Below are positions 29,300 to 49,083 of a stretch of 64,000 nt of DNA, in pieces. Position numbers and translations under genes: made by a program. The DNA lies in contig CAVRJG010000041.1 in NCBI GenBank assembly GCA_963721455.1, positions 1 through 64,000 of the forward strand. The letters run 5' to 3'. The notes beneath the pieces were generated by a model. That model was not told the origin of the DNA, ran no database searches, and saw only the letters and a list, made by a program, of their open reading frames with translations. Positions within the stretch are counted from its first letter, which is position 1, and each line of letters starts with the position of its first letter. Origin of the DNA: an uncultured Methanosarcinaceae archaeon (GTDB lineage: Archaea > Halobacteriota > Methanosarcinia > Methanosarcinales > Methanosarcinaceae).

Positions 29300-29373
29300 G
29301 GGCTCGTGGTCTAGACGGTTATGACGTCGCCTTCACACGGCGGAGGTCCTGAGTTCGAATCTCAGCGGGCCCA
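29300..29373 (+). tRNA. tRNA-Val(CAC), integration target
   Basis: GGGCTCG/CGGGCCC acceptor stem, TCGCC-TT-CAC-AC-GGCGG anticodon arm, GAGTTCGAATCTC T-arm. Confidence 0.96.
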
Positions 29374-29451
29374 CTACTTCTCTTTTTTGTCTTTGTTTTC
29401 CTTATATGGTTTCAATCATCTCTTGGTTTTTAATTGATTGCTTTTAACTGT

Positions 29452-29560
29452 GAGCCCATCCCAAAACCGATTTTATTTTTGGTATCGATAAGAATTTTAG
29501 AACAATTTTCGTAACCGGAAACTAGATTGACTATTGCGAATTGAATTTTGGGATGGGCTC
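29452..29560. mobile_element. 109-bp MITE, 15-bp perfect TIR GAGCCCATCCCAAAA, 3-bp TGT flanks
   Basis: gagcccatcccaaaa ... ttttgggatgggctc with TGT on both sides. Confidence 0.75.
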
Positions 29561-29638: not shown

Positions 29639-31291
29639 ATGAACACTAGCATGGAAAACTTAAGGTGTCATTGCTGTGGAAATGATTTATACATTAAGGA
29701 AATGAATGAAAACGGATATATTTTATTTTGCCCTTATTGTTTGGATTTGGTTCCAATAGACAAAAGTAAATCACTGGATCTACTTAAAAATTATTCAAAT
29801 AATGTAAGAAAGGTTGCTTCTGAATGTCTTAGCTCATTTTCAAAAGAAAAAATCATTAAAGATTTTATGAATTTTAGAGAAATTACTTTTAAAGATGAAG
29901 AAGCTATTAATTTTAACCTAAAACGGTGTATAATTTCAACATTAATTATTGGAGATTGTTTAAAAAATACTTCAGGAAGAAATTATACTAACTGTGTACC
30001 TTATAATTTTGAGGATTTGTATTTCTTTTACGAAAAGTTATATTTTGCTAATAATTCTATTGTTGAAATAGAAGAGGGCTTTTCTAGTATTTTTCCTTCA
30101 TCAGAAAAACTAAATGAATTAATTCCCCAAATTAGAAAAATATCTTTTGAATTTGAAAGAAAGGAATATTGCTACATTCCTAAGCAAATTTGGCAATACT
30201 ACAACAATACACTAGAATTCAGTACTTTATTATCTTCACACTTAAGAAAAAATCATTCTTTATTTAAGCAAATAGAGAAAAACAGGAAAACAAATGAAAA
30301 AATAACGAAACTTAATTTAAAATGCCAAAGAGCTACAAAGTGGCAGAAGAAGAAAATATATAACGAAATAGAGTTGCTTAAAAAAGAAAAAATATATTCA
30401 TTATTAGAAATGATTTATAATGGTTTTCATGCTGTATATTTAGATGCGGAAATTTTTTCTTTTAAGGAACTTCAGGAAATTGACTTAGAAGGGCCAGTTT
30501 CTAAAATCATAGGAAGTTTAATCGCTTACAAAAAAGGAAACTCTATTAGGTATGAAGACAGTCCACTTTATTATGAAATAACTTTTGAGGGATTTAGAAA
30601 AATATGCGAAGGTTGTAATGTAAATGTGGATATGTGCTATGATTTATTAGTATCATCCGAAATGCATTGTAAAGAGTTCCCTCTGCTCATCGAAATAAAC
30701 TCAACAATCTTTATTTGTCCAGAATTTTTAACTTTTATATGGTCCTTTATTAAATTTAAATATAACAGCAAGAGTTTTAAAGATGAAACTGGAACGTTGC
30801 TGGGAAAAAATTTTGAAACTGAAGTAGAAGAATTATTCAGATCGCAGGGATTCAGATTAGAACATCCAATTCATAAAAATAATAAGTTAACAGATAAAAA
30901 AATATCTTTTAATGATAATTCTGGGAAAAATTTAAAGTTCGAAATTGACCTAATTCCATATAACGATAAGTTCATTTTTGTTGTTGAATGTAAAAGATAC
31001 AACTTAAAACCAAATTATATTTACGAAAAGGAGAGAAGACTAAGATTTTGTGGAAATAAAGGAATTAAAGACGAAATTAACAACAAACATATTCATAGAA
31101 TTAATTATATTAAAGCAAATTATGGTGAATTTGGCTTTAATTCTGAAAAGGAAGTTAAAGGACTAATAGTGACATACGTTAAAGAAGAATTTAGCAACTA
31201 CCACGGGGTAGATGTTGTAGCATTCTCTGAATTATCAAATTATTTGAAATCTTTTACTTTAACTTTAAAAATCTTAAATAATAAAAAATAG
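29639..31291 (+). CDS. Hypothetical protein: N-terminal Zn ribbon, C-terminal PD-(D/E)XK nuclease-like domain
   Basis: CHCC..CPYC; GKNFETEVEELF..FEIDLIP..FVVECKRY; very AT-rich. Confidence 0.7.
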   Translation: MNTSMENLRCHCCGNDLYIKEMNENGYILFCPYCLDLVPIDKSKSLDLLKNYSNNVRKVASECLSSFSKEKIIKDFMNFREITFKDEEAINFNLKRCIISTLIIGDCLKNTSGRNYTNCVPYNFEDLYFFYEKLYFANNSIVEIEEGFSSIFPSSEKLNELIPQIRKISFEFERKEYCYIPKQIWQYYNNTLEFSTLLSSHLRKNHSLFKQIEKNRKTNEKITKLNLKCQRATKWQKKKIYNEIELLKKEKIYSLLEMIYNGFHAVYLDAEIFSFKELQEIDLEGPVSKIIGSLIAYKKGNSIRYEDSPLYYEITFEGFRKICEGCNVNVDMCYDLLVSSEMHCKEFPLLIEINSTIFICPEFLTFIWSFIKFKYNSKSFKDETGTLLGKNFETEVEELFRSQGFRLEHPIHKNNKLTDKKISFNDNSGKNLKFEIDLIPYNDKFIFVVECKRYNLKPNYIYEKERRLRFCGNKGIKDEINNKHIHRINYIKANYGEFGFNSEKEVKGLIVTYVKEEFSNYHGVDVVAFSELSNYLKSFTLTLKILNNKK

Positions 31292-32025
31292 CAGTAAATT
31301 GGATTAAAATACTAAATTTTTTCTTAAGACTTTGATTAAAATTTTGGTAGCTTCTGTCATTCATCAGATTTTTCGAAAAGGGCCGGATACTTTTCTCTTA
31401 ATAGTATGAGGATCTTTTCATCTAATTTCACTATCATAAAATGTATTCACTTTGAAAACTTGGTTAGGTGATAAACCTTTTCAACTCCTTCAAGGTTAGC
31501 TTTGATAAGCTAAGCCTCAACAAGATCAGCTTCTTGAAAGATTTGTATAATCAATTTAGGAATCGCTAAAGAATAACTTCACATTTCAAATTCGGGAATT
31601 ACTTTACAATTCCATTTCCGCGAATAATCGTCGAATACGATTTTCATGGTTTCCTGAACTTTTCACTTACTGTTCTTGCCTTTGCATAAACTGTATTTTT
31701 GATAGTCGATAACATTTTTACTCCTGTTGATGTAGAAGTCTTATCAATAAGGCTTTTCTACGCCACGTGATAAATACATAGCAATAGCAACACCATCTGA
31801 GCAAGCACGGTAACATGTTTCAGCACTAAGCTCTGTGTAATATTAAATTGGTACTTGAAGATATGAGGAATACTGAGCCATTTTGAATGTTCAGATCACG
31901 AATTTCCGACAACTAAGTTTTTTGTAAAGCTTCCTTAAATATACTTCTTTCCTTGGAAATGTTTACAAGTCCGTTATCAGCTAAAGTTAAAACTCTAGAA
32001 TTGGAGTGCTTATGGTGATAAATTT

Positions 32026-32534
32026 ATGGCAAAAAGAAGATTGAAGTTTCCATCAGTTATGATGACATTCCTACGAAACTAGCTTGTAAATTTATTCGGA
32101 AAGATTCTGAATTCCTACAGGAACAAGTTATCAAACAAACAATTAATCTGTTATACACAAATGAGTTTAAAGGCCCTCTTGAAGAATTCCAAGAAGCTTT
32201 GGATCATTACATGTTGAAACAGTATGAAGATACAATTCATAAGTCAAATAAGGCATTTGAGAGCACAATGAAATCTGTTTTAACGAAACTAAACATTAGT
32301 TTCAGCCCAGATGATACTGCCGAAACGCTTTTAGAACGGCTAATAAAAAAAGAATTCATTTATAAATATACAAAGTCCTTATTTATGGGTCTACCTATGA
32401 TAAGGAACAAACAAGGTGGTCATGGACAAGGAATAGACCCTAAAGAAGTTAATCAAAGTTATGCAGAGTTGACATTAAACTTAGCTGGAACATTTATTGT
32501 GTTTCTGGTAACCAGATATCAAGAATTGAAATAA
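32026..32534 (+). pseudogene. Abortive-infection C-terminal (Abi_C/AbiJ-like) domain fragment
   Basis: I.KSNKAFESTMK..IRNKQGGHGQG..AELTLNLAGT, a HEPN-like RN-x4-H pattern; upstream frame disrupted. Confidence 0.6.
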
Positions 32535-32696
32535 TTAGTTTTAGTCAATATATGACTCTGTTTCAAAATCTAGTGATTAATCATTGAGCGTGAAGCTTTT
32601 ACAACTCCTGTTTTCAGGCAAGTCTAACTTTTTGGGAGCCAATTAGAGGTTTCAGTGAAATTTTAAGGACTTATGTAGCTTAATGTGCAAAATGAA

Positions 32697-32741
32697 GCCT
32701 TCACACGGCGGAGGTCCTGAGTTCGAATCTCAGCGGGCCCA
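32697..32741 (+). repeat. tRNA-Val 3' half copy 1 (att site), 45 bp identical
   Basis: GCCTTCACACGGCGGAGGTCCTGAGTTCGAATCTCAGCGGGCCCA equals 29329-29373. Confidence 0.97.
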
Positions 32742-32854
32742 CTCTTCATTTTTGTCTTTATTTTTGGTCTTAAGAGTATATAGAACACCTTTTCTGACTT
32801 TTTGAAAAAACAAATTAGACCAGATTATAGAATCCTATCAATCACAGCTAAAAC

Positions 32855-33205
32855 TTACTTTTTATAACCAAACTTTTTATCGTACTTTTTATGATCAATT
32901 ATGTCAAGAACTAATACAATTATTTCAATACCTGAACTTCCTGCTGTAAGCGTGTAAAGCATCCTCCAGAAATTAGGGAGTTCCACTCTAAACAGATTCG
33001 TTATTTCATATTTGGTTTTGTATTCGGCAGGAATCAGTTTTTTGGCAATTGGTTGCCCATAGTGGATATTCTCCTTTAGAAGTTCCACTTTCTGAAGGAA
33101 AGCATTAAGGATTATCTCTTCCTGCTTTGATTCTGGTGCCTTACTCAGGAGAGAATTATATGCATTTGCGGCCTCCGGGGTCAGGATCACTCGAACAGAT
33201 TTCAT
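32855..33205 (-). CDS. RelE/ParE-like type II toxin
   Basis: 116 aa, VILTPEA..NLFRVELPNFWRMLYT..IIDHKKYDK; ATGA overlap with the upstream gene. Confidence 0.6.
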   Translation of the reverse strand: MKSVRVILTPEAANAYNSLLSKAPESKQEEIILNAFLQKVELLKENIHYGQPIAKKLIPAEYKTKYEITNLFRVELPNFWRMLYTLTAGSSGIEIIVLVLDIIDHKKYDKKFGYKK

Positions 33206-33480
33206 AGTTCAAGTCCCTGAACCACTGCCTTTCTCAGGTTTTCATTCCTGCTGTGAATCCAGGTTACTCCCTTAAGCCCGACAGCAATTTTATTGCTCTG
33301 CTCCAGATAGTCCAGAATAACCATCAGAGTATTATGATTTACCTGTCTTGGCAACATTTTTTTGAGTTCAGCAACTGTTACAACGCTGTTAGGGCTGTTT
33401 TTCAGAGTGTCTTCGACCATAAGAATAGTATTAAGAGTTGGGGAAGGCTTTGCTTTATCAGAACTTAGTGCTTCTGCCAT
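33202..33480 (-). CDS. Small winged-helix-like protein, putative antitoxin
   Basis: 92 aa, PTLNTILMVE..ELKKMLP..ILDYLEQSNKI; translationally coupled to the toxin-like gene. Confidence 0.6.
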   Translation of the reverse strand: MAEALSSDKAKPSPTLNTILMVEDTLKNSPNSVVTVAELKKMLPRQVNHNTLMVILDYLEQSNKIAVGLKGVTWIHSRNENLRKAVVQGLEL

Positions 33481-36101: not shown

Positions 36102-36231
36102 TCATCTGTGCCTTATTATGAATTTTTCATTTTATGGAACAGTGTTCTGGTGATTTGATTCCTCATTTAATGAGATAGAAAGGTCTACAGCATTTGGCTC
36201 GTCGATAACGGTGCAGATGTCGCATGTTCCA

Positions 36232-36276
36232 GCCTTCACAAGGCGGAGGTCCTGAGTTTGAATCTCAGCAGGCCCA
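36232..36276 (+). repeat. tRNA-Val 3' half copy 2 (att site), 3 mismatches
   Basis: GCCTTCACAAGGCGGAGGTCCTGAGTTTGAATCTCAGCAGGCCCA. Confidence 0.95.
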
Positions 36277-36454
36277 TTTTTTATTATCCTTATTTTCCGA
36301 TTCTAAGTGCGTAAAGAGCTTTTTTCCAGATGTTCAACTCTTGATTCGAGGTCAGCTTTTTCTTTTGTTGATCTTTATACTCGCTTCGAATTGTGAGCAC
36401 TTTTGAAGTCTCCTGTGTTGCAATGTCAAGTTTTTCTTGGAGATTCCTGCCAGC

Positions 36455-36610
36455 TCATCTCTGTATTAATCCCGAGAAGCATAACATTTCAGTTAATATC
36501 TCATCAGGCTGAACTTCTCGTGGATCATTAAGATATAGCTCATGTACAGGACCAGCAATTCTTTTTCCACATCGTTTTGCGTTTTTCTGTATCTTATTTG
36601 CGAATTCCAA
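36455..36610 (-). pseudogene. GyrI-like effector-binding domain C-terminal fragment
   Basis: IAGPVHELYLNDPREVQPDEILTE motif only. Confidence 0.6.
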
Positions 36611-36749
36611 AATAACTGAATTCATCGAGCATGAAAGTTTTGCCGTTAAATTTTCTGTAAGTTTTACGTATAATACCGCCATGAGAAACTTTTGAAGCTA
36701 AATGAAAGCTGTTAAAATCACATTATTTTGCACTCTTGCTAATATATCC

Positions 36750-37154
36750 TTAAATTGCCTTAACCCACGTCCTCCCATCCCATTTTTTCCAGTGCATTAT
36801 TATCATAGCACGGTTTAACAGAAGTTCTTCTCCCGAGTCAATGAAATCGTTTCCATTCTTGAGCCCATGTTCGAAAGTATATCTAAGGCGTCCGGAATAC
36901 CATTCTAAAAACTGTAAGAATGCTTCGAATTCCGATATCTTCAGATTCTGCATAAAGAATTCAATGCATATTTTTTGTAGCTGGTCCTGTCTCGGTAGCC
37001 AGAAATAATTAATTGAGTTATTTCCGGGATAGAGTAAAACCTCAACTTCTTCAGAAACAGGATTATAAACAAAATCTCCTGGTTGGAAAACCCATTTTCT
37101 TTGAATTTCCTTCGCTGATTCGCACATTTTGATATATTTTTCTGATGTATCCAC
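36750..37154 (-). CDS. Hypothetical protein
   Basis: 134-aa ORF with GTG start and GAGGA SD; WLPRQDQLQ motif, WDGRTW end. Confidence 0.7.
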   Translation of the reverse strand: MDTSEKYIKMCESAKEIQRKWVFQPGDFVYNPVSEEVEVLLYPGNNSINYFWLPRQDQLQKICIEFFMQNLKISEFEAFLQFLEWYSGRLRYTFEHGLKNGNDFIDSGEELLLNRAMIIMHWKKWDGRTWVKAI

Positions 37155-37293
37155 TTAACCATCCTCAGAAACCATCACTCACACAACAGTTAAAAGGCAT
37201 ATCCGAGCTAACTGAAAGTATTCGATCTCAAATGGTTCTTTAATAAGTCTCGCTAAAAGAAGAACAAGCTCTATTTTCTATTCCTGCCTTCAA

Positions 37294-37530
37294 TCATCCT
37301 TGATTCTTATTTTTAAGTTTCTCAAGCAGGCTCGATGCTCTTTCCTTAGCATCCTCAGTCTCCTGCGCATCTATGTCAATGGTAATATCCAGAATGTCCC
37401 CTTCTTTACTTTCAGAGGGCAGTAAAAAAAGAGGGATATTGATTTTAATTGTTTCTTTATCCCTCACAAGCAAGACCGCAACGCCTTCTTCGATCCTGTC
37501 TAATGTAACTTTAAAACTCTCCATAATCAT
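37294..37530 (-). CDS. DUF3006 family protein
   Basis: LDRIEEGVAVL..LP..KEGDIL..ETEDAKER; overlaps the stop of the MBL gene. Confidence 0.85.
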   Translation of the reverse strand: MIMESFKVTLDRIEEGVAVLLVRDKETIKINIPLFLLPSESKEGDILDITIDIDAQETEDAKERASSLLEKLKNKNQG

Positions 37531-38813
37531 CTATCCAGTTTTGAGACCAGCTTTCCACTATCATCGTAGAGAGATGCTGTGTCACCACCGTTGTTCCATA
37601 TAGGATTGTCTAATTGCCAGTAAAGCTCAGTAGCTGAGTTTGTGCCCTTTCCAGTAAATACAGTTACGGTGGTTCCTGCATTCAGGGTGTAAGACAGAAA
37701 CGTATAGGTATGTTTATTGCCTTCATCTTCAATTTTCCAGCCGTTCAAGGAAACTGGAGAAGACCCCGTGTTTGATATCTGAACCCATTCATCTTGAAGA
37801 TTCAGGTCGCTCACATAAACAGTCGATTCCGCAGAACCTGGAGTTTTCGACTCTTTAGTTGTTGAATCTGTAGAAGTGTAAGCTCCGCTTCTACTGGAGA
37901 TAGTCCCGGTTTTTTCAGTTGTTACAGTATAAGTTGATCCGTCTGTTGTAACTATGATTGTGCCACCCAGATCCGTTCTATATACTGTTGAAGCCTTCTG
38001 CAGTCTATCAAGGATCTCATCATGAGGATGCCCATAGTCATTTCCTGCTCCAACTTCGATTATACTTACTTCAGGACTTACAGCTGAAATAAAGGCTTCT
38101 CCGCTGCCGGATGTGCTTGCATGATGTCCGACCTTAAGGATATCAGAATCTACATCGTACCCAGCTTCCATTATGTTTTCCTCTGATTCCAGACCTGCAT
38201 CTCCCATGAGCAAAAACGAAGTGTCGCCATACGTTACTTTGAGAACCACGGAGTTTTCATTCAGCTCGTCGGAGTATGCGCTTGCAGGATTCAGCACTTC
38301 GATATCAACAGCAGGGTCAAAATCAATTGTCTGACCAGCCCTAACTACCTCAAAAGGAATATTCTTTGTATCAATAGTGGTCAGCATATTCTCGTAAGTT
38401 TTAGAAGTATGAGGGTATCCACTGTCAACAAAATGTTCTACCTGGAAGTTGTTAAGAATATCGTTCATCCCGCCGATATGATCAGAATGCGGATGAGTTG
38501 CAACTACATAATCCAGTGTTGAAATTCCCTGGTCCTGCAAGTAAGCTGTGACAACTTTTCCCTGGTCACTTTCTCCTGAGTCAACTAACATGGATTTTCC
38601 ATCAATCTCCAGGAGGATTGAGTCTCCTTGACCAACATCCAGGAAATGCACTGTAAGGTTCTGGCCTGATTGAGTGACGGTATTTTGAGTAGTTGTAGGA
38701 CTCGTTTGTTCCGAAGCTGTTTCAAAAGGAGTTTCTTTTGGATCTGTACATCCGGCTGCAATGAGTACCAGGGTCAGGCAGAAGATTGTGGCAGTCAGTT
38801 GTGAGGGTTTCAT
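37527..38813 (-). CDS. ComEC-type metallo-beta-lactamase lipoprotein with C-terminal lamin-tail domain
   Basis: Lipobox IAAGC; FLDVGQGDS, THPHSDHIGG, NENSVV, GDA, KVGHH, YGHPH; EWVQI.N..LNGWKI..IWNNGGD. Confidence 0.9.
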   Translation of the reverse strand: MKPSQLTATIFCLTLVLIAAGCTDPKETPFETASEQTSPTTTQNTVTQSGQNLTVHFLDVGQGDSILLEIDGKSMLVDSGESDQGKVVTAYLQDQGISTLDYVVATHPHSDHIGGMNDILNNFQVEHFVDSGYPHTSKTYENMLTTIDTKNIPFEVVRAGQTIDFDPAVDIEVLNPASAYSDELNENSVVLKVTYGDTSFLLMGDAGLESEENIMEAGYDVDSDILKVGHHASTSGSGEAFISAVSPEVSIIEVGAGNDYGHPHDEILDRLQKASTVYRTDLGGTIIVTTDGSTYTVTTEKTGTISSRSGAYTSTDSTTKESKTPGSAESTVYVSDLNLQDEWVQISNTGSSPVSLNGWKIEDEGNKHTYTFLSYTLNAGTTVTVFTGKGTNSATELYWQLDNPIWNNGGDTASLYDDSGKLVSKLDR

Positions 38814-39292
38814 TAATATATTAATGCGTCAGAGGTATTAGAAACTTGCATTGAGCTCTCTTAAAACTTATTTTGTTCTTAAAAGCTACAAAGATGAAAA
38901 TTAAAACCAAAAAGGAGTGCTTTAGACTTATATTTTTAGAATTCTATTCGATCTCAAATCCTTCTATACTAATGCAAGTGGTCTACCTTTTCTTCTCTTG
39001 CATTCTATAACTACAGAGATCTTATGGATGTAAAAAAGTTACAAACTATATTGTATGGATATTGGGAAATTCATTAACTCGTGGTAGCGGATAGCGAGAT
39101 TAGCCTTTAAGTCTCAAAACTATTGATTTTCTAACCTCCTATTTACAATGACAGCCAACAAATATTGAACGTTTAATTGGTCTCCCCCACCCACACGGCT
39201 TATTACGGATTATCTTCTCATTACTCGCCGACGCAGATTCGGCATAATAGTCTTCCTTTCTTCATCAGGATCTAAATATACTTTGCACAGTT

Positions 39293-39323
39293 GAGGTCCT
39301 GAGTTCGAATCTCAGCGGGCCCA
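39293..39323 (+). repeat. tRNA-Val 3' copy 3 (att site), 31 bp identical
   Basis: GAGGTCCTGAGTTCGAATCTCAGCGGGCCCA, followed by CCTACTTCTCTTTTTTGTC resembling the flank of the intact tRNA. Confidence 0.95.
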
Positions 39324-39803
39324 CCTACTTCTCTTTTTTGTCATTATTTCCTGATTCTAAGAAAACATATACCTCTTTTTCTAATGCTTTAATCAGTGCT
39401 TCAAGGTTAGATTTTTTTCTTCTGGTTGTGCAACTTTGTTCGCCATTAAACTCTTCATCAAGGGAAAGCGCATAAATAGGCTTTGTACTCTATATAGTTA
39501 TTGTTATATCTATATAGTTATATTGAAAAATGTGGGCTTAATGCCTCTATTGACAGATTGTAAGCTTTATAGATATTATTTAGGTAAACGGGACTTTAAA
39601 AGTCCTCTTAATCAGATAGCTCTTTTTGATGTGTAAGTGAATAAATAAACGCCTGTTTTATCCCGAAATAATTTCTCTCTTTGAAATTCTTATCTTACAA
39701 TTATACTCAGGTACAGACGATGAACACAAGCCCCTGATATACTATTGAAAATTTATTTATGTGTTGGAGTTTATATTATAGGATTAAAGGATTATAGGAG
39801 ATA

Positions 39804-39995
39804 ATGCGAATGGATGCAGCAACACAACATAAAATAGATGATAAACTGAAAGCCATACAGGCGAATGAGAAGAAGATAAGGGACGAGACTAAGAAAAAGG
39901 GCGAAGCTGAGAAAAAGATAAAAGAGTACAATGCAGCTAATGGTGTGCTTAGAAAAGAAATCAGTAAGTTAAAGGAAGAATCGAGCAAGAAGTGA
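39804..39995 (+). CDS. Small Lys/Glu-rich coiled-coil protein
   Basis: 63 aa; GGAG SD; shares an upstream element with the ORF at 40414. Confidence 0.6.
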   Translation: MRMDAATQHKIDDKLKAIQANEKKIRDETKKKGEAEKKIKEYNAANGVLRKEISKLKEESSKK

Positions 39996-40413
39996 TAAAC
40001 AGGCTAAGCTTCAGTTAAGTAACTCCCCAAACCGCAAACTGGCAGGCAGGCATCATAAGTAATTAATCAAACATAATAACGTATTTACATATGTAAGTCG
40101 TATCATTATTCATGAAACTTGTCGATTTTTCTAATAAGTATAATAATTTTAAAACCCGGCTTGATGTTAATGTAACTTCGCTCAGTAACCATTTCAGTGA
40201 CTCCCATAATGTCGAAACACTTGGTGTTACGCTAGCTACTGTGGGTATATTATGTTATTACATTCTTCAAAAAATTCAGGAACGAAATAAAGGCTAGAAA
40301 TAAAAGCTAAACCACAATCAACCCCAAGCCAGCCCTCTCTCCACAATTGAAAATTTATTTATGTGTTGGGGTTTATGCATTATACTAAGTAAAAAGTAAT
40401 AAGAGGTGAAATA

Positions 40414-40656
40414 GTGCAAGCAGTTGCAGAAAAGCAGATAGAAGTCAAGAAAAAAGAATTAGAAGCTGTGAGGAAAGAGTTTGCTAAAAAAGAGGATGAA
40501 TTAAAACGACTAGAGGCAGAGAAGAAAATTGCAGATCATAGGCAAAAAGCGGAACTTAATAAACAGGTACAAGCAATTACAAATGAGTTGAAGAATATGA
40601 GTGAAGCCCTCAAAAAGATGGATAAATCCGTCAAAAAAAGGGAGAGTAAGAAATAG
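40414..40656 (+). CDS. Small Lys/Glu-rich coiled-coil protein
   Basis: 80 aa; GAGGTG SD with GTG start. Confidence 0.65.
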   Translation: MQAVAEKQIEVKKKELEAVRKEFAKKEDELKRLEAEKKIADHRQKAELNKQVQAITNELKNMSEALKKMDKSVKKRESKK

Positions 40657-40920
40657 GGGCTATCTTTTATTAGCGTGCCTATCCCAAAAGACGGTGAACG
40701 TCTTTGCACGTACAACCTGTCATAACGACATACAAAATACCGTTCATTAACTTTCTCATATCTGCACGTGGCCTTCCTGTGTGTGGTTTTTGTGGAGGAA
40801 GATAAGGTTCTATGGATTTCCATAGAACCTCATAGATTTCACGGAATGACATAAAAGTAAATTTATAATTCCAACATAATCTTAGTTTCGGGATAAGCTC
40901 AATTTTAGAAATTCATTATT

Positions 40921-41376
40921 TCATCGTTGTACATTAATATGCATTACTGCTTTGCTCACTTGACCCTCAGCGTTTTTTATTCTTAAATAAACTTTATACC
41001 TTCCTGGTTCTTTGAATGGATGTACAGGGTTCTTCAAAATTGATGTAGTTTTATCTCCAAAGCCCCAGAAGTATGTAAGTCGCCCATATTTCTTACCCCA
41101 TATGTATGGAACTGGTTTCCCGATACTCGTATCTGTGAATCTTATTGTCAATGGTCTATTTGGGTCATGAGTTGCAGTAAAAGCAGCAATAAGATTTGGG
41201 GCAACGACTTCAGGGTTAGATTTAATCGTTGTTGTATCATACATTGTTGTATCATACATTGTTGTATCCGTATTTGTATCGTCATTCGCAAGTGCTGCAA
41301 TTGCAGTCACAGATAATAAAATAATACTGATTAAAACTATACCTATTGTTTGCTTTAGTTTCATATGATTCCCCAC
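40921..41376 (-). CDS. Secreted PKD-domain protein
   Basis: Signal peptide, DTTMY repeats, FTDTS.G..WGFGD..KNPVH.F..PG.YKVYL. Confidence 0.8.
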   Translation of the reverse strand: MGNHMKLKQTIGIVLISIILLSVTAIAALANDDTNTDTTMYDTTMYDTTTIKSNPEVVAPNLIAAFTATHDPNRPLTIRFTDTSIGKPVPYIWGKKYGRLTYFWGFGDKTTSILKNPVHPFKEPGRYKVYLRIKNAEGQVSKAVMHINVQR

Positions 41377-42023
41377 CTTAAATTTTCTTTATAATCAGTA
41401 CTTACTGTTCCTTTTTTACGGTCTTGCCATTTGTCAATTTTAATTTAAACAATTCTATTTTATATAAGTTATCAGCCGGATAAGAATTGTTGCACAAGTG
41501 AAGATTACAAAATACAGTAGAATAAGAGTATTTTTGCACAATCAGCAGAAAAGGTATATAAGCTGTTAGACATGTGGAGTTAGTTCTGAGGTAACATTCA
41601 ATTCTGTGAATTCATGGATGAAAGGATATATAACTGCTCTCCAAGAAATTGAAAGTAAATATACTCTATACATTCTTAAAGAATAAACTGTGCAGATGAT
41701 TGAGACTCTCATCTGGACAGCAATATTGATATTCTCCGCATGTAAACAGATAAAGGTTTGTTATAAATGGTTGAATACGAAATAAAGGAATTTAATCAAA
41801 ATGAGTAATGGGGAAGGGACTGATCATATACTCCTTTCCCTTCATTTTGACAAAACACATACTAAATTATAATAAAATTAAACAATAAATATAGAGTTGG
41901 TACCAAAACTCATTTTCAATCCTGGTCAATGGGATTTTTAGGATTCCTTTCACGATCTGAAGCTCGATTGGTCACTTGAAATGCGGGAACCGGAGAAGTA
42001 AATTTTGAGTTTTGGGATGAGCT

Positions 42024-43186
42024 GATGGTCCATCTTTATCCGATTGATGTTTTAAAACACCTGAATGTCAGCAGTTCCTTTAAAGTCCATTTTGACTTCG
42101 CAATTCCTGCCTCTCTCGCAGGTGTATTTTTGCATTCAACCCCTCTTTCATCTTTGTACTTTAATCCTCCATGACCTCTACAGAAGTTAAAATGCGTGCA
42201 ATAGAGCTTCATTTGGCTTTCTAACCACTCTTTCGCTTTTGAAAACCCTATTGTTTTTCTTGAAACTCTGTTGTTATCCTGCCTAAAAGTCAGGTTTTGT
42301 CTTTCAAGTAAAGTTGTTGAGATTTCGCTTTGTTCAATGTCTTCTCCAAAGATGATTTTCTTCTCTACTTTCTCAAGTACTCCATTTACTCTAGTTTTGA
42401 CTACCTGTGCATACTTCAAATCATCAGAGGGAACGATTTTTGGTTTCCTTGGTCTTCCTCTTTTCCCAGTTCTTGGAAACTCTCTCAAAACTCCAAATTG
42501 TTTTAATAGAGCTTCCCTATAGAATTTCAGTCCATCTGTGACAAAAAGAGGGATTTTATCTGAAAGATGTTTATCGATTAATTCAACCAGCTTGTCTGCA
42601 ACATACTGTTTTCTTGGACCTATTATAAAATCAAGTATTAGCCTACAACCTGGTACAAAAGCTACCCACATCCAGGGCCCATCGTCTTCATAATCTTTCA
42701 TTCTTGGAACTATTTTTTTTGGATTATAATCCATAATTCGTCCATTTCTACCTTTGACACATCCACGTTCTTCATCAGAGTATCATTTACTTTATCGCAT
42801 TGTTCAGCTGCACGAGCTAACCATCGTTTTACACTGGCAGATTCTACCTCTAAAACATCGGCAATGGCTTCGATGCTCATTCCTTTCATAGACATCTTTA
42901 AAGCTAAATCGATAGTTTGCTCATCTTTGCGAAGATCATGATAAAAAGTGCCTGTATGGTCATTGAATACTTTGCCGCAGTGGCGGCAAAGATATCTTCT
43001 TGTTTTTTCTCCACGGCTTATGTAAGTTCCATTTCCAATAACATTGCCTTGATTAGTAAGCCCATAGAGCTTACAGTCTTTATTCGGACAGGCAACGTTA
43101 ATGAATTGTGGTTTTGGACCTCTTTTCCCCATAATATAAACATAGGATTCTCATATATAATATCAATCAGATACAAATTGACTATC
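42024..43186 (-). mobile_element. Complete IS1-family element (1163 bp) with 8-bp target duplication GATGAGCT
   Basis: Imperfect 28-bp TIRs GATGGTCCATCTTTATCCGATTGATGTT / GATAGTCAATTTGTATCTGATTGATATT; TSD at 42016-42023 and 43187-43194. Confidence 0.9.
42036..43132 (-). CDS. IS1 transposase, two overlapping ORFs joined by a frameshift at an A8 run (~42713-42720)
   Basis: OrfA has Zn finger CPN..C..CRHC, HTH and EMDELW; OrfB has VTDGL..LERQNLTFRQ; CAAAAAAAATAG slippery site. Confidence 0.85.
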
Positions 43187-43560
43187 GATGAGCTCATAAT
43201 TTAAAAATCCACATGGTAGCTTAATGCACCATAAGTTAACAGTTTATTAACAGGTATGAACCGTCCAGCCTGAGCTAATAGATTAACAGTCCACGAATAA
43301 TGCCCTGTTCATGGATTTCTTGCATGTGGTCAGTTCAAATCCTTCAAATTATGAAAGTTACTTTATAAAAAAGAAAATTCCATCAAATTCGTATTTCACC
43401 TAATTTCCATACATTAGCAAACAAAAGCTCATAAGCTAAATTGATTTGGATTACGTCTGAGTTATGTTAGACAATATTCTTACTCTTAATGAATCCTGTC
43501 TATTGATATCGATTTATCCATTCCGTCTGACTTGTCTACTATTTTTGCCCCTTTCTTTCA

Positions 43561-43719
43561 TTCAGTCTTTTGATGCTTTTTTAAGATTCTCAAGAATGCT
43601 TGATACGCTCTCTTTTGCATCCTCTGTCTCTTTTGTATCTCTGGAAATGGTAATATCCAGAATGTCCCCTTCTTTGCTTTCAGCAGGCAGTAAGAAAAGA
43701 GAAATCTTGATTTTAATTG
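43561..43719 (-). pseudogene. 5'-truncated second DUF3006 copy
   Basis: IKIKISLFLLPAESKEGDILDITISRDTKETEDAKESVSSILENLK; DNA visibly similar to 37310-37451. Confidence 0.8.
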
Positions 43720-43998
43720 CCCCATTATATTAGTTTCGGGATAGGCTCATTAGAAAAAGTAGGGTTATATGATAATATAATTGAAATGAAAATTGTAGGA
43801 TGCCCGAAAAATTATGAAGTAATAGAGACAGAGAAGAATGTGGCTGATAGTATTAAAGAAGGAATTATGTCGTTCCTTGGTATTATAATTTTTATATTGC
43901 TGATAATTTCTGTCGCATAAATGATATACTATGGTGCACCTACCGAGGATCTTTTTGAACCATAAATGATGATGGGATTTTATTCCTTAAAAACTGGG

Positions 43999-46290
43999 TT
44001 ATATTAGAAAAATGGAATGTTGTTTCAAATTAGCTACTGGAAATAGTGGTTCAGGTTCTGGGATGATTGCAATTCCCCCAGGAGAGACCTCGATATTCAC
44101 TGTTGCTGAGACAGTATCGTTTGAGGTGTCAATTACAGAAATATTGTTGCTATAATTGTTTTCATAACTGCCCTTGACTACCACGTATACCTTTTTTCCA
44201 TCAGGTGTGACTGCAATTTCTTTAGGATACTTTCCTACATTCAATGTGGTTACAACTTTTCTTGTAGATGTATCAATTACAGAGACAAAGCCATCTTCGC
44301 CAGCCACATATACTTTTGTTCCTGTTGGATTGACTACAACTTCATTGAGGTCTTCTTCTTACATCCACCGTAGCTATAACGGTATTTGTAGCTGTATCAA
44401 TGACAGAGACATAGTAGTAGGTTGTCACATATACCTTTGTTCCATCAGGTGTGACTGCAACTCCCCAAGGATGTTCACCTACAGGTACTGTAGCTATAAC
44501 AGTATTTGTTGCAGTATCAATTACAGATGTGGTATTGCCAGGGATAGAAAAGTTGCCATAGTTAGTCACATATGCCTTTTTTCCATCTGGGGTTACTGCA
44601 ATTCCCATATGGGTATTTCCTACAGGCACAGTGGCTTTAACAGTGGTTGTGTCAGTGTCAATTACAGAAACATTATTGCTGCCACTATTAGTCACATATA
44701 CCTTTTTTCCATCAGGACTGATTGCAACTCTATAGGGATCAGATCCCACTTTCACAGTGTCTGTAACAGTATTTGTTGCAGTATCAATTACGGAGACATT
44801 AACGCCCCAACGGTCAGCCACATATGCTGTTTTTCCATTAGGTGTGACTGCAATTCCATAAGGCCCACGTCCTACTTTCACAGATGTTATAACTAATCCT
44901 GTGGCTGTATCAATTACAGAGAATGCACCATCATTCGTAATGTATACAAATGGCCACGTGGATGAAACCCTTTTTTCAACGCTTATGTTAGCAAGTTTGG
45001 AATTAGTATTGAGTCCATTGCTAGCTGTCAAATTAACTGTATAGTTTCCTGAAGTCTTGTACGCATATACAGGATTTTGTTTTGTGGAATCTAATACCCC
45101 ATCACCATCAAAGTCCCAGTTCCACACAACTGCGTTTTTTGAAAGATCTGTAAACTTAACAACAAGAGGTGCAGTACCGTTAGTGACACTGGCTGTAAAG
45201 TTAGCAGTTGGGATAACTGAATTTTGAGACTGGACATCGATACAAGAGGTAAATAGTCAAATTTGTCCTCATAGACGTTATAAGGATCCTCATAGATTTT
45301 ATAAGGCAGGTCTCCAATCCCATTTCCATCCAAATCCACGCAGATCTGGGAGAATCCAGTTCCATCTGGCTTTGCCCAGAAGTTGCCTCCGATGTAAGGG
45401 CCACCGACAATATTACTGCCTGAAGCAAGTGAACTGTTCCAGGTATTTCCCCCTTCACAAGGTCCAAACCTTACGTTTAGACTATTGTTAAAATAATTAT
45501 TGTAGATTTTTTCTACGACCATTATTTTCTTTATCAAAAATCCCGCACTCTGCACAGGACGTTATTGTATTGTTGATTATACCAACATCACAACCATCTT
45601 CTAATTCAATCCCTACATTACAGTTTAATATTGTATTATTGTCAATTACTGAACTTGTTTGGGCAAGCTAATTCCATAATCGCAGTCAGTAATCCTGTTA
45701 TTACGAATATCTGCCAGCCTGATCCCATTCAGTAATACCAGTGGAGCAATTTGAGATTGTATTACCTGATACTGTATTATTTATTCCACAGCAGTCAATA
45801 AATATACCTTCTTTGCCGTTAGAGATTTTGTTTTCGGCTATTAAATTACCTGATATCTCGGATCCCAGAAGTAATAGAACCATTTTCAATGGTATTACCT
45901 GTCACATTATTCATATCGCCATAAACGTTGATTGAACCGTTTTCATAACCCTTACTGGCTCCTGTTATATTTAAACCACTGATCGTTGTAGCATTAGCTG
46001 TTATCAGAAAGGTACTTTCACTTTCATTCAGCGGTTTTACCTGCACATCTCCATTGTTTGATTCTGACCTGATAGTTAGACCTTTTACATTGACAAGAAC
46101 GTTTTCAGTATAAGTTCCAGACCTCACGATTATTATGTCCCCTGTTACAGAATTATTCACAGCTTCCTGAATTGACACGAAATCAGCTTCAGAATTATCA
46201 TCTACCGTAATTTCCCTTGCTGATGCAGTAGCTGACATGGAAACTAAGAAAATCGAAAATCAAAAATGTTGAAGTTAATCTTATTGAGCA
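43999..46290 (-). pseudogene. Cell-surface protein with NosD/beta-helix, PKD and YVTN beta-propeller repeats, multiple frameshifts
   Basis: Fragments 45846-46238, 45701-45889, 45091-45555, 44342-45127 and 43999-44307 read as one Methanosarcina surface protein (SIQEAVN, GGNFWAKPDG, WDFDGDG, YVTN/VSVIDTATN). Confidence 0.85.
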
Positions 46291-47070
46291 TAGCTTCTCT
46301 TTATTCCTCATTATTCCCCCAAATGAATTTATTTAATCTTTAACAAATAAGCCTTAATATTACTCATTATTCTCTATTTGTATTAAGAAATTGGAATAAA
46401 GAAAAAAAGAAGAGAAAGTTTACTTTTCCAATGCTCTTATAGTTAAACAGGTATCTGAAAGGCAAAAAATATATCTTTCAAATCTGACAAAAACAAGGTA
46501 AATTCACCCGACGGTTAGATTTGATAATTGACTCTCTACTTGATTCTGATTTACTCTGGTTTATTTTTTCCTTAAAAATCCGAGAAACATATTCCTAAAA
46601 GCCATATTATATTCAACCTGAAAGAGGAAAAGGTAGTGGTAATTGATATGAACATATCTGTATCATGCCTGTTACTGGAAACTACCCCCCTTTTGAAAGT
46701 TCAGAATGGAAATGCGTATATCCCTGTCCTGATTATTTCGTGCAAAAAAGGTAATGCCAACCATAGGGGAATTATTAATCAAAATTAATTTTAAGTTCAT
46801 CACTAGATTTTGGCATTGTGTCAAAAAAGCAAAGGATTAATATGCCTCCATGGGCTAATTGTAAGCCATATTGTCCTTTTTTTTGAAATTGGCGCTCTAA
46901 ATCCCTTTTGAGATATGAAACTAAATTAAAGTAAAACTAATTTTGCCAATAATAATGTTTAAAATAGGTCTTTTTTGAGGTCGGGTCGATTGACCCGCTA
47001 TTATTTCGTGTCAGCTGGGACCGGCGTTCTGCTATCGGAACTGCACCCTTTTTCTGAATCGGAGGCTAAA

Positions 47071-47117
47071 TCGCCTTTACATGATGGAGGTCCTGAGTTC
47101 GAATCTCAGCGGGCCCA
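47071..47117 (+). repeat. tRNA-Val 3' half copy 4 (att site)
   Basis: TCGCCTTTACATGATGGAGGTCCTGAGTTCGAATCTCAGCGGGCCCA; 4 mismatches, all in the anticodon part. Confidence 0.95.
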
Positions 47118-47288
47118 CTTTTGTTTTTTCCGATTATAAGAGCTTATAGAGCTTTTTTTCCAACTGCTCAATTCTTGCTTCAAGGTCAGATTTTTCTTCG
47201 GGTTGTATAACTTTAAGTTCACAGTTAAGCTCTTCTTCAAGAGCAATTAAATAAACAGGTTTACTATTTTACTAAGAGGAAAACAACA

Positions 47289-47873: not shown

Positions 47874-48142
47874 TCCTTATTTTTGTGAGTCTGGCTCTCG
47901 AATTTAAATGTAAATCAAAAATATGTGCATTACAGTCTCAATTCAACTACTATAACCCAAGCTATTATCAAAGAAACAAATCTAATAAACCGTTTGATTT
48001 CGCTCTGTGAATCTTTTTTTAAGCTTCTAAATTACTATTTTCTCAATTACGGATAACACTCTCCCTATTTCATACTCTGTTTCTTTTATACTTCTGACAA
48101 TGGTAATATACAGAATATTTTCCTTCTCTGCTTCTATACAGC

Positions 48143-48186
48143 CCTTCATACGGCGGAGGTCCTGAGTTCGAATCTCAGCGGGCGCA
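48143..48186 (+). repeat. tRNA-Val 3' half copy 5 (distal att site)
   Basis: CCTTCATACGGCGGAGGTCCTGAGTTCGAATCTCAGCGGGCGCA; 2 mismatches. Confidence 0.95.
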
Positions 48187-48321
48187 CTTCTGTTTTTACA
48201 GATTCCTTTTTTCAAATTCCGCATTATTTTTAGTAAAGTATACTTCCAGGCAGTATACTTTTTACGTCCCCCCAGCCGTAAAAACAAAATGAAAACTTTT
48301 TGATCACACTCACTGATTAAA

Positions 48322-48819
48322 TTATTTCTTTTGCTCAATGTATCGGGATTTAGCTTCCTGAAGTATAGTGACTGCTGTTTCGAGGCCTTTCCAACCGAAA
48401 ACGTTCACGTGTTTGCCCTCTAATTTCTTGTAATTTTGGAAGAAGTGAGTAATTTCCTTAAATAGATGAGGCGGAACATGGTCAACGGTCTCAATATAAT
48501 TCCACATGGGATCATTCTTTGGAACGCAGAGTATTTTTTGATCTCTTCCTTTATCATCTTCCATGTCAAATAGTGCCACAAGATGTACGTCTATTACACA
48601 ACCTGGAAAGGTAGGTTCCCAGGTTAAAACCATAGCATCTAAAGGGTCACCGTCAAGGGCCAGGGTATCGGGGAAAAAACCGTAATCTGAAGGATATACC
48701 ATTGAAGAAGAAAGCATTCTGTCGTATTTAATCACTTTCTTTTCTTTATCATACTCGTATTTATTTCGGCTTCCTTTTGGAATCTCGATAAGTACACTTT
48801 CAACCTGTCGTTCAGTCAT
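48322..48819 (-). CDS. ppa: Inorganic pyrophosphatase, family I
   Basis: IEIPKGS..KYE, YP.DYGF, DGDPLD, HFF..YK. Confidence 0.93.
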   Translation of the reverse strand: MTERQVESVLIEIPKGSRNKYEYDKEKKVIKYDRMLSSSMVYPSDYGFFPDTLALDGDPLDAMVLTWEPTFPGCVIDVHLVALFDMEDDKGRDQKILCVPKNDPMWNYIETVDHVPPHLFKEITHFFQNYKKLEGKHVNVFGWKGLETAVTILQEAKSRYIEQKK

Positions 48820-49083
48820 GCAAGAACTTCCTGCTTATTGATAGTTATTATAATACTGTTTCTTAATGATTGCAACTATTTATGCGCTCATAGATTATGT
48901 GTCCTGACAGGGTTATACTATTAAAACATGACCTCATGTGTTAATTTTCTTGACATCTGAAAGGAGAGATACAGGAAAATTGATTTGAAATATTCTTTTG
49001 GTACCTTTGATAAGAATGAGGTAAGATAATGTGCAACCTCTGCATCTGCAATCACATTGTGTTCATCGGGAAATTTTTAACAA

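Follow-up and report, generated by a model that had tools for sequence, protein, structure and literature searches.

The locus described here raises the question of which gene has left a series of short, related sequences beside tRNA-derived repeats in an uncultured Methanosarcinaceae archaeon. The window (the whole stretch of 64,000 nucleotides (nt) that was analysed) contains a tRNA-Val(CAC) gene whose 3' part recurs five more times as attachment-site (att) copies. A sequence-only reading had taken the sequences to the right of these copies for the coiled-coil C-terminus of a gene pointing at att, most plausibly an integrase gene, of which the att-proximal part was kept as a cis-acting site. 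We conclude, with a probability of about 0.92, that these vestiges are the decayed 3' ends of int(N), the N-terminal part of a split SSV-type integrase gene of the PF16795 family, carried by integrative elements of Methanosarcina.

The att sequence (repeat family D2) was identified by blastn as the 3' 46 nt of the tRNA gene, positions 29329-29374. Between 32 and 46 nt of this sequence are repeated in each further copy, and all copies lie in one 18-kb array in one orientation:

29300..29374, plus strand: tRNA-Val(CAC), called by ARAGORN, at the left end of the array.
32697..32742, plus strand: att copy 1, identical to the tRNA at 46 of 46 nt (blastn).
36232..36276, plus strand: att copy 2, 93% identical over 45 nt (blastn).
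39293..39324, plus strand: att copy 3, identical at 32 of 32 nt (blastn).
47086..47118, plus strand: att copy 4, identical at 33 of 33 nt (blastn).
48142..48187, plus strand: att copy 5, 97.6% identical over 41 nt, adjoined on its left by a DUF3006 gene fragment.

Mismatch counting revealed no further degenerate copies with up to nine mismatches of 29. The left extension of att copy 4 (TCGCCTTTACA.., window 47075-47118) resembles the anticodon arm of tRNA-Val(TAC) and not that of tRNA-Val(CAC), which suggests that the element behind this copy had used, or was adapted to, the TAC isoacceptor gene.

Related DNA does follow att copies 2, 3 and 4, as the sequence-only reading had noticed. The right flanks of copies 2 and 4 share 83.6% identity over 73 nt (blastn, E 1e-14) and those of copies 3 and 4 share 73.4% over 143 nt (E 2e-13); the minus-strand peptides given earlier for these three flanks were also reproduced. 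We searched the window with a DNA profile of 294 positions, made from 14 Int(N) genes of relatives. The att-coded part was left out of the profiles, so that att itself could not cause matches. The vestiges, numbered c1 to c4 after the att copies that they follow, are placed as follows:

47119..47286, minus strand: Int(N) 3' vestige c4, in which a stop codon precedes att.
39325..39504, minus strand: Int(N) 3' vestige c3, with a compensated 2-nt frameshift.
36277..36384, minus strand: Int(N) 3' vestige c2, frameshifted.
32743..32810, minus strand: Int(N) 3' vestige c1, marginal, about 50 nt (alignment 32750-32797).
29375..29398, minus strand: Int(N) tail trace of about 24 nt directly after the tRNA (blastn against c3).

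Vestige c4 was matched by nhmmer at 47124-47273 (profile 128-277, E 2.7e-35; protein profile E 5.8e-20) and c3 at 39330-39483 (profile 139-292, E 1.9e-27; protein profile E 2.1e-14). For c2, the DNA match lies at 36280-36364 (profile 203-288, E 2.9e-13), and the protein profile matched two pieces that stand in separate frames (E 0.0066 and 0.045). The blastn and nhmmer E-values given here rule out a chance resemblance between AT-rich sequences. The c1 match reached E 0.1 (profile 238-286) and was not significant as protein (E 33); it was the fourth-best nhmmer match of the whole window, with its place, strand and profile end as expected. The peptide read earlier at copy 1 mixes two frames, frame 2 giving EKVFYILLRPKIKTKMK and another frame LKTKNKDKNE. 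The trace after the tRNA is the same as the start of c3 (39326-39349) at 24 of 25 nt (blastn, E 0.003-0.013). In genome G013 this tRNA is followed by a longer vestige, whose start aligns with the trace. For the trace, the profiles gave no nhmmer match and a protein E of 84. Neither of the shorter matches proposed earlier, for copy 1 and the tRNA, is significant as protein. Just right of the tRNA (window 29442-29542) lies a dispersed repeat of about 100 nt resembling a miniature inverted-repeat transposable element, with dozens of 70-80% copies on many contigs, which probably cut the tRNA-side trace short.

To the right of att copy 5, nhmmer found no Int(N) match at E <= 10, in agreement with the earlier reading that this copy lacks the related sequence; its first 20 nt agree with c4 at about 16 of 20 by eye, which we did not count as evidence. 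Elsewhere in the 3.94-Mb genome, blastn detected no further copy of the vestige sequence, and the other three tRNA-Val genes are free of vestiges.

We then compared the vestiges with their counterparts in relatives. The c3 peptide found matches in 52 of 59 genomes of the genus at E <= 1 and in 34 of 59 at E <= 1e-3, and the best of them sit in open frames of 95-145 amino acids (aa). An open reading frame (ORF) of about 98 codons with a methionine start precedes att in 14 of 19 fetched loci, and in 16 of the 19 the open frame goes on into the tRNA 3' end, read as its reverse complement (for example ..SGPAEIRTQDLRRVKATS). This ORF starts with MKLLGKSK.., has a beta-rich first half followed by ..GKPVYVISLDEEFNGELKV.., a helix containing ..SDLEARIEALEKEVY.. 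and a K/E-rich tail; the vestiges in the window correspond to its last 30-55 codons. Searches of Int(N) against Pfam and PHROG gave no family match, and the one match obtained from the ESM Atlas was a cluster of 70 archaeal members labelled 'hypothetical protein'. AlphaFold2 models were of low confidence, with a pLDDT (predicted local distance difference test score) of 51.6 for a 410-aa contiguous frame described below and 52.6 for Int(N) alone, and only their secondary structure was used. Int(N) is predicted to form two to three strands and a single long helix, and a linker predicted as disordered would include the att-coded residues.

The remainder of the gene is found in complete elements. 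In G007, a tRNA-Val(TAC) gene is followed by an Int(N) ORF ending ..ESGPAEIRTQDPRRVKAMS, a 1009-aa primase-like protein, a few small genes and, 11.5 kb away, a second att copy. A 346-aa minus-strand ORF leaves this far att copy in the same frame (SGPAEIRTQDPRRVKAVFDK..) and matches PF16795, 'Archaeal phage integrase', with an E-value of 5.9e-39 (134 bits, cut-off 27). The same ORF matches the integrase family phrog_5127 (E 1.3e-40). Residues 94-344 of the ORF align with positions 121-349 of the 355 in this profile, which thus expects an N-terminal part that is missing from the G007 ORF. It also matches PDB entries 3uxu, 3vcf and 4dks ('probable integrase', E about 1e-7), which we take to be the SSV1 integrase, and the 3uxu alignment spans a stretch, ..FIQGR...HY.., that is invariant in all seven catalytic halves, Int(C). 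The 1009-aa protein (L021 8194-11223) contains an archaeo-eukaryotic primase domain (PF22548, E 1e-16) and is probably the replication protein of the complete elements.

Seven genomes (G007, G012, G015, G019, G024, G025 and G038) have both Int(N) and Int(C) on a single contig, separated by 9.4-28.9 kb. Each of the seven uninterrupted Int(C) frames examined begins inside the att-coded peptide, and the two halves use the same att frame in every one of the seven elements. This holds even for G019, where both the tRNA and the frame are different (..CDSN.GPPPCEG..). A tRNA and an att copy bracket the elements in G007, G012, G008 and G040. Frames that join the halves also exist: a contiguous Int(N)-att-Int(C) frame of 410 aa runs without a stop in G025 (L030:1501-2730, minus strand; without the first approximately seven codons), and one of 406 aa is found at metagenome locus L105 (1677-2897, plus strand), with its ATG one frameshift upstream, at about codon 4. 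L105 was the only one of the 20 loci of the metagenome scan with the 406-aa open frame. In G035 (L096:12806-13189, minus strand), the frame of a full-length Int(N) continues through att and enters a scrap of Int(C).

These results bear out two of the earlier proposals: the gene does point at att, and it belongs to the integrase of the element family, since its frame continues into the PF16795 half in seven of seven elements. What had been taken for its C-terminus is instead the end of Int(N), approximately residues 45-98 of 410, after which the frame continues through att. Accordingly, relatives show Int(N) ends beside the tRNA where C-termini of tyrosine recombinases had been expected. The coiled coil had been rightly noticed in that the kept part includes the predicted long helix, and was misplaced in being assigned to the C-terminus.

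The ORF of about 98 codons could in principle be a separate small gene of the element, such as a DNA-binding regulator or an excision factor, which reads into att by accident. It has its own methionine start in the 14 loci mentioned above, 3 of the 19 ORFs stop at or before att, and chance alone leaves two of the three att frames open. In the genus, moreover, long Int(N) frames outnumber intact Int(C) several times over: we counted about 30 Int(N) frames of at least 95 aa, against nine places with Int(C) at E < 1e-100, in seven genomes, six of them stop-free. A separate gene does not, however, account for Int(C) frames that begin inside att with neither a start nor an upstream domain of their own, for an att frame common to both halves whichever tRNA and frame is used, or for the contiguous frames of 406-410 aa. 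The PF16795 family is, furthermore, defined by this same split, the behaviour that characterizes SSV-type 'suicidal' integrases, in the available parts of a review (PMC8371274) and of Makarova 2014. We therefore consider a separate gene very improbable.

Scraps of the other half of the gene lie at the array too. Int(C) sequence was found at three places in the window:

32571..32707, minus strand: Int(C) 5' vestige to the left of att copy 1, interrupted by a frameshift and stops.
36135..36230, minus strand: Int(C) 5' vestige to the left of att copy 2, in the frame used through att.
48922..49077, minus strand: internal Int(C) fragment from the catalytic-domain region, beyond the pyrophosphatase gene.

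The vestige left of copy 1 matches positions 19-155 of the Int(C) DNA profile (nhmmer, E 5.1e-8) and contains the peptide KKLDLPENRSCKSFTLND, which matches the Int(C) of G012. The one left of copy 2 is identical at 16 of 29 residues to the Int(C) of L033, which is of the G019 type (BLASTP, E 1e-9). The internal fragment, of 51 aa, was detected with the family protein profile (E 7.6e-7) and by nhmmer (E 1.6e-12), and BLASTP aligned it with residues 228-258 of the G007 Int(C) (E 7e-8). Stops and frameshifts break all Int(N) and Int(C) vestiges of the window.

No PF16795 match was found in this genome, which is 98.5% complete in 73 contigs, and tblastn and nhmmer detected neither an intact Int(C) nor a further Int(N) in it. 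There is likewise no integrase ORF in 28200-49500, and Pfam found none among the 20 ORFs of the array. The Pfam, tblastn, nhmmer and PF16795 searches together rule out an integrase hidden in the cassettes. The 1009-aa primase-like protein of the complete elements has left no trace in the genome.

These findings are best explained by the following course of events. In the free element, the attachment site would lie inside the integrase ORF, and recombination with the 3' part of tRNA-Val would split the gene. Int(N), about 98 codons long, would remain to the right of the tRNA or att, reading towards it, while Int(C), with the catalytic domain, would move to the far end of the element and start inside the next att in the same frame. 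Several element variants would have inserted at this tRNA or at existing att copies and been trapped there by their broken integrase. Deletions would then have removed the replication genes and most of int, leaving att copies with int scraps and cargo. The homology, the common frame through att, the integrase family, the separate origin of the vestiges and the lack of an integrase in this genome are shown by the results. We infer the sequence of these events, that trapping led to the decay, and that only att-proximal pieces remain because the decay was neutral.

The vestiges themselves indicate whether the array was built by separate integrations. At the nucleotide level, c4 is 78% identical to the Int(N) of L011/L013, against 66-72% to the other vestiges of the window; c3 is 72% identical to that of L003, against 66-68%; and c2 is 75% identical to that of L002, against 68-72%. 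The three vestiges thus stem from different element variants, which arrived independently and share a single integrase family. The earlier view that the cassettes share one element family holds at the level of the integrase, with the qualification that they came independently, as distinct variants. We also weighed whether one att-plus-flank unit had been duplicated locally, as the position of all copies in one 18-kb array and their shared orientation might suggest. We rejected this because all three vestiges resemble Int(N) genes of other genomes more closely than they resemble one another; in addition, the att copies differ in left extension and in length (46, 45, 32, 33 and 41 nt), and single cassettes are common to different relatives. 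Local duplication is the least probable of the explanations that we weighed.

Relatives carry comparable arrays at the syntenic tRNA-Val(CAC), with four att sites in G013, five and a degenerate one in G009, four in G035 and three in G045. The c4 vestige and its acetyltransferase gene are shared with G035 (90.7%) and G045 (95%), and the vestige starts at profile position 128 in each, so its truncation is old and was inherited with the cassette. The c2 region is 83.7% identical to att1 of G035, where Int(N) has kept its whole length (profile 1-292, E 5e-84), which makes the c2 of the window a further-shortened copy.

Several observations weigh against a split integrase as the source of the vestiges. 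Int(N) has no match in Pfam or PHROG and its models are of low confidence, so that any fold or role assigned to it would be tentative. Read-through by itself is weak evidence, as two of the three att frames are open in any case, and for that reason the argument rests on the matching frames of both halves. Conservation of the catalytic residues, the tyrosine nucleophile among them, is putative, the comparison covering the invariant ..FIQGR...HY.. stretch. A free circular form with a clean start-to-stop integrase gene was not found in two scans of viral contigs or among the metagenome loci, and the contiguous frames of G025 and L105 may be tandem junctions and not attP, the attachment site of a free element. 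Finally, Int(N) 3' vestiges are far commoner than Int(C) 5' vestiges, an excess that plain neutral decay does not predict.

This excess bears on the earlier proposal that selection keeps the att-proximal part for cis-acting sites such as integrase arm sites. We counted vestiges in the arrays of G000, G013, G009, G035 and G045, accepting att sites with up to five mismatches of 29 and nhmmer matches at E < 1e-3. Int(N) was found to the right of 15 of 22 att sites, and Int(C) to the left of only 2 of 17 att copies, or 3 if the vestige beside copy 2, found by eye and BLASTP, is included. Vestige starts also cluster near profile positions 116-145 and 200-238. As a measure of constraint beyond coding, we determined third-position entropy at conserved two-fold codons in 13 distinct intact, related Int(N) genes. 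It was 0.37 in codons 61-95 (n=13) and 0.61 in codons 1-60 (n=20), a difference that is not significant with 13 related sequences (Mann-Whitney p 0.064); E codons of Int(N) are almost always GAA. Lower synonymous variation near att is therefore at most a weak trend.

Other features of the arrays speak against selected arm sites. Vestige length varies between about 24 and 170 nt, no vestige stands at copy 5, c2 is truncated from an Int(N) kept at full length in G035, which shows stepwise loss, and several of the clustered start points come from one shared cassette. Int(C) vestiges flank att too, and the genome has no integrase that could use such sites. According to the available portions of Badel et al. 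2020 (PMC7253208), the integrases of pT26-2, SSV2 and pTN3 recombine short att substrates without outside sites, and arm nucleotides of pT26-2 are described as 'not crucial'. A simpler account of the att-proximal scraps would be that deletions which remove att also remove the landmark by which a cassette is recognized, so that a surviving att is flanked by whatever the most recent deletion left in place. We found no clear support for the arm-site idea, which appears improbable, although somewhat less so than a separate gene or local duplication.

The asymmetry between the halves may itself be partly a detection effect. The Int(C) profile was made from seven sequences, six of one subtype, and it is weak in the variable 5' region, the first 50 codons being poorly conserved. 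The rest of the Int(N) excess could arise because the promoter and start stay with Int(N) when the gene is split and are lost to Int(C). The K/E-rich Int(N) tail also leaves a T-rich plus-strand run after the tRNA, which in the first copy might conceivably aid tRNA 3' end formation.

To the right of att copy 5, where the earlier reading had placed core DNA, lies a further gene:

48322-48819, right of att copy 5: inorganic pyrophosphatase gene (Pfam E 5e-56).

The internal Int(C) fragment at 48922-49077 follows this gene, and the block that holds both (approximately 48229-49077) recurs as a unit in G045, G035, G022, G006 and G002, with an array position that differs between genomes. In G002 (L066), att copies stand on both sides of it. 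In G002 and G013 (L093), the block directly follows a homologue of the second cassette of the window (86% and 90% nucleotide identity), and the 11.9 kb with cassettes 3-5 are missing. In G040 (L025), a pyrophosphatase gene lies between the tRNA and a degenerate att. The gene is the only pyrophosphatase gene detected in this genome, and at least two matches are present in 17 of 58 other genomes. It is thus doubtful that copy 5 abuts core DNA; the pyrophosphatase gene looks like part of a sixth, older remnant.

The cassettes carry varied cargo. The first (29639-32534) codes for two proteins that may form a defence pair: one of 550 aa, whose match to the NERD nuclease family is weak (E 5.5e-4, below the cut-off), and a DUF7014/Abi_C protein of 111 aa. 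At 32855-33480, two overlapping minus-strand ORFs of 116 and 92 aa, with no Pfam match, look like a toxin-antitoxin-type pair; they share 90-95% protein identity with a pair near an att-like copy in G011 (L026 1351-1907), and the same contig holds a partial second copy at approximately 120442-120520. An intact DUF3006 gene (37294-37530) stands beside a metallo-beta-lactamase/lamin-tail gene, and decayed fragments of the DUF3006 family are found at 43587-43663 and 48040-48116 (75-79% nucleotide identity), the latter adjoining att copy 5. In the fourth cassette, two overlapping ORFs at 42036-43132 have weak IS1-transposase and helix-turn-helix matches, which suggests an insertion sequence. A surface-protein gene with PKD, beta-propeller and NosD repeats (43999-46238) is broken into several ORFs, and its tandem repeats of 121-126 nt account for repeat families D1, D3, D4 and D8.

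We compared the locus with known systems. The elements resemble those with SSV1/SSV2-type (type I, 'suicidal') integrases in three ways: the integrase ORF contains attP, insertion into the 3' part of a tRNA places int(N) at one end of the element and int(C) at the other, and the catalytic half matches PF16795 in relatives, the window itself keeping the 51-aa internal piece. Unlike those systems, the hosts are mesophilic methanogens and not Sulfolobales, the elements carry the 1009-aa primase-like protein and no fusellovirus genes, and Int(N) has about 98 codons, with a predicted beta-rich start and one long helix, and matches no library family. The pT26-2-like suicidal integrases belong to the same superfamily, split themselves and target tRNAs; five integrases from mesophilic Methanosarcinales are present in the widest data set of Badel et al. 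2020, as far as the available text shows (PMC7253208). Here, by contrast, one tRNA is followed by five extra att copies, and relatives have two to five.

In Sulfolobus islandicus, intN fragments beside tRNA genes have been tabulated, and split-int remnants that overlap or adjoin the target tRNA are the sole trace of old integrations and recur in different strains (available part of Jaubert et al. 2013, PMC3718332). These are single fragments at several tRNAs in a crenarchaeon, whereas in the window a series of fragments stands at one tRNA together with Int(C) scraps. Lambda-like arm-type sites resemble the array in that sequence beside the core att is retained on one side. For the array, however, we found no clear evidence of DNA constraint beyond coding, and characterized relatives act on the shared att alone, at least in the portion of Badel et al. 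2020 cited above. Integron arrays also consist of short cassettes separated by one recombination site, with whole cassettes present or absent between relatives. In the window, however, the array has neither an integrase gene nor an attI-type site next to it, genes point both ways, and the repeats are tRNA-derived att copies with integrase-gene scraps.

The PF16795 split, trapped elements and 'gene capture' are already established in the available parts of three sources (PMC8371274, PMC7253208 and PMC3718332). The type of scar is therefore known, and the tandem array is modestly unusual. Our literature search on Methanosarcina SSV-type integrases found no report of such arrays. Badel et al. 2020 (PMC7253208) state that none of their data sets ever showed a tandem insertion, and they model the reconstitution of the gene in tandem. 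The contiguous frames of G025 and L105, together with the arrays, are natural, decayed cases of this tandem-reconstitution geometry.

We also entertain, as a tentative and rather unlikely extension, that the tRNA-Val locus is a standing gene-capture array. Any att could then receive elements or cassettes; att x att recombination would add, remove or move whole cassettes whenever a related element provided integrase in trans; and a resident Int(N) beside the target att could be rejoined, across att, to the Int(C) of a newcomer. If this were true, a self-splitting integrase would regain its ORF while integrated, which would explain why Int(N) outlives Int(C), and the array would document the tandem reconstitution that Badel et al. 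modelled and reported as never observed.

Under the split-integrase reading, the repeat is a dated record of at least five, probably six, separate insertions of self-splitting elements at one methanogen tRNA-Val. It indicates that tandem accumulation at one site occurs for this integrase type, which bears on the rescue of trapped elements. An unannotated Int(N) ORF reading into a tRNA could serve as a simple annotation marker for such Methanosarcina elements. The insertions, all now dead, have left the host with defence-like genes, surface-protein genes, an acetyltransferase and its sole detected pyrophosphatase gene.

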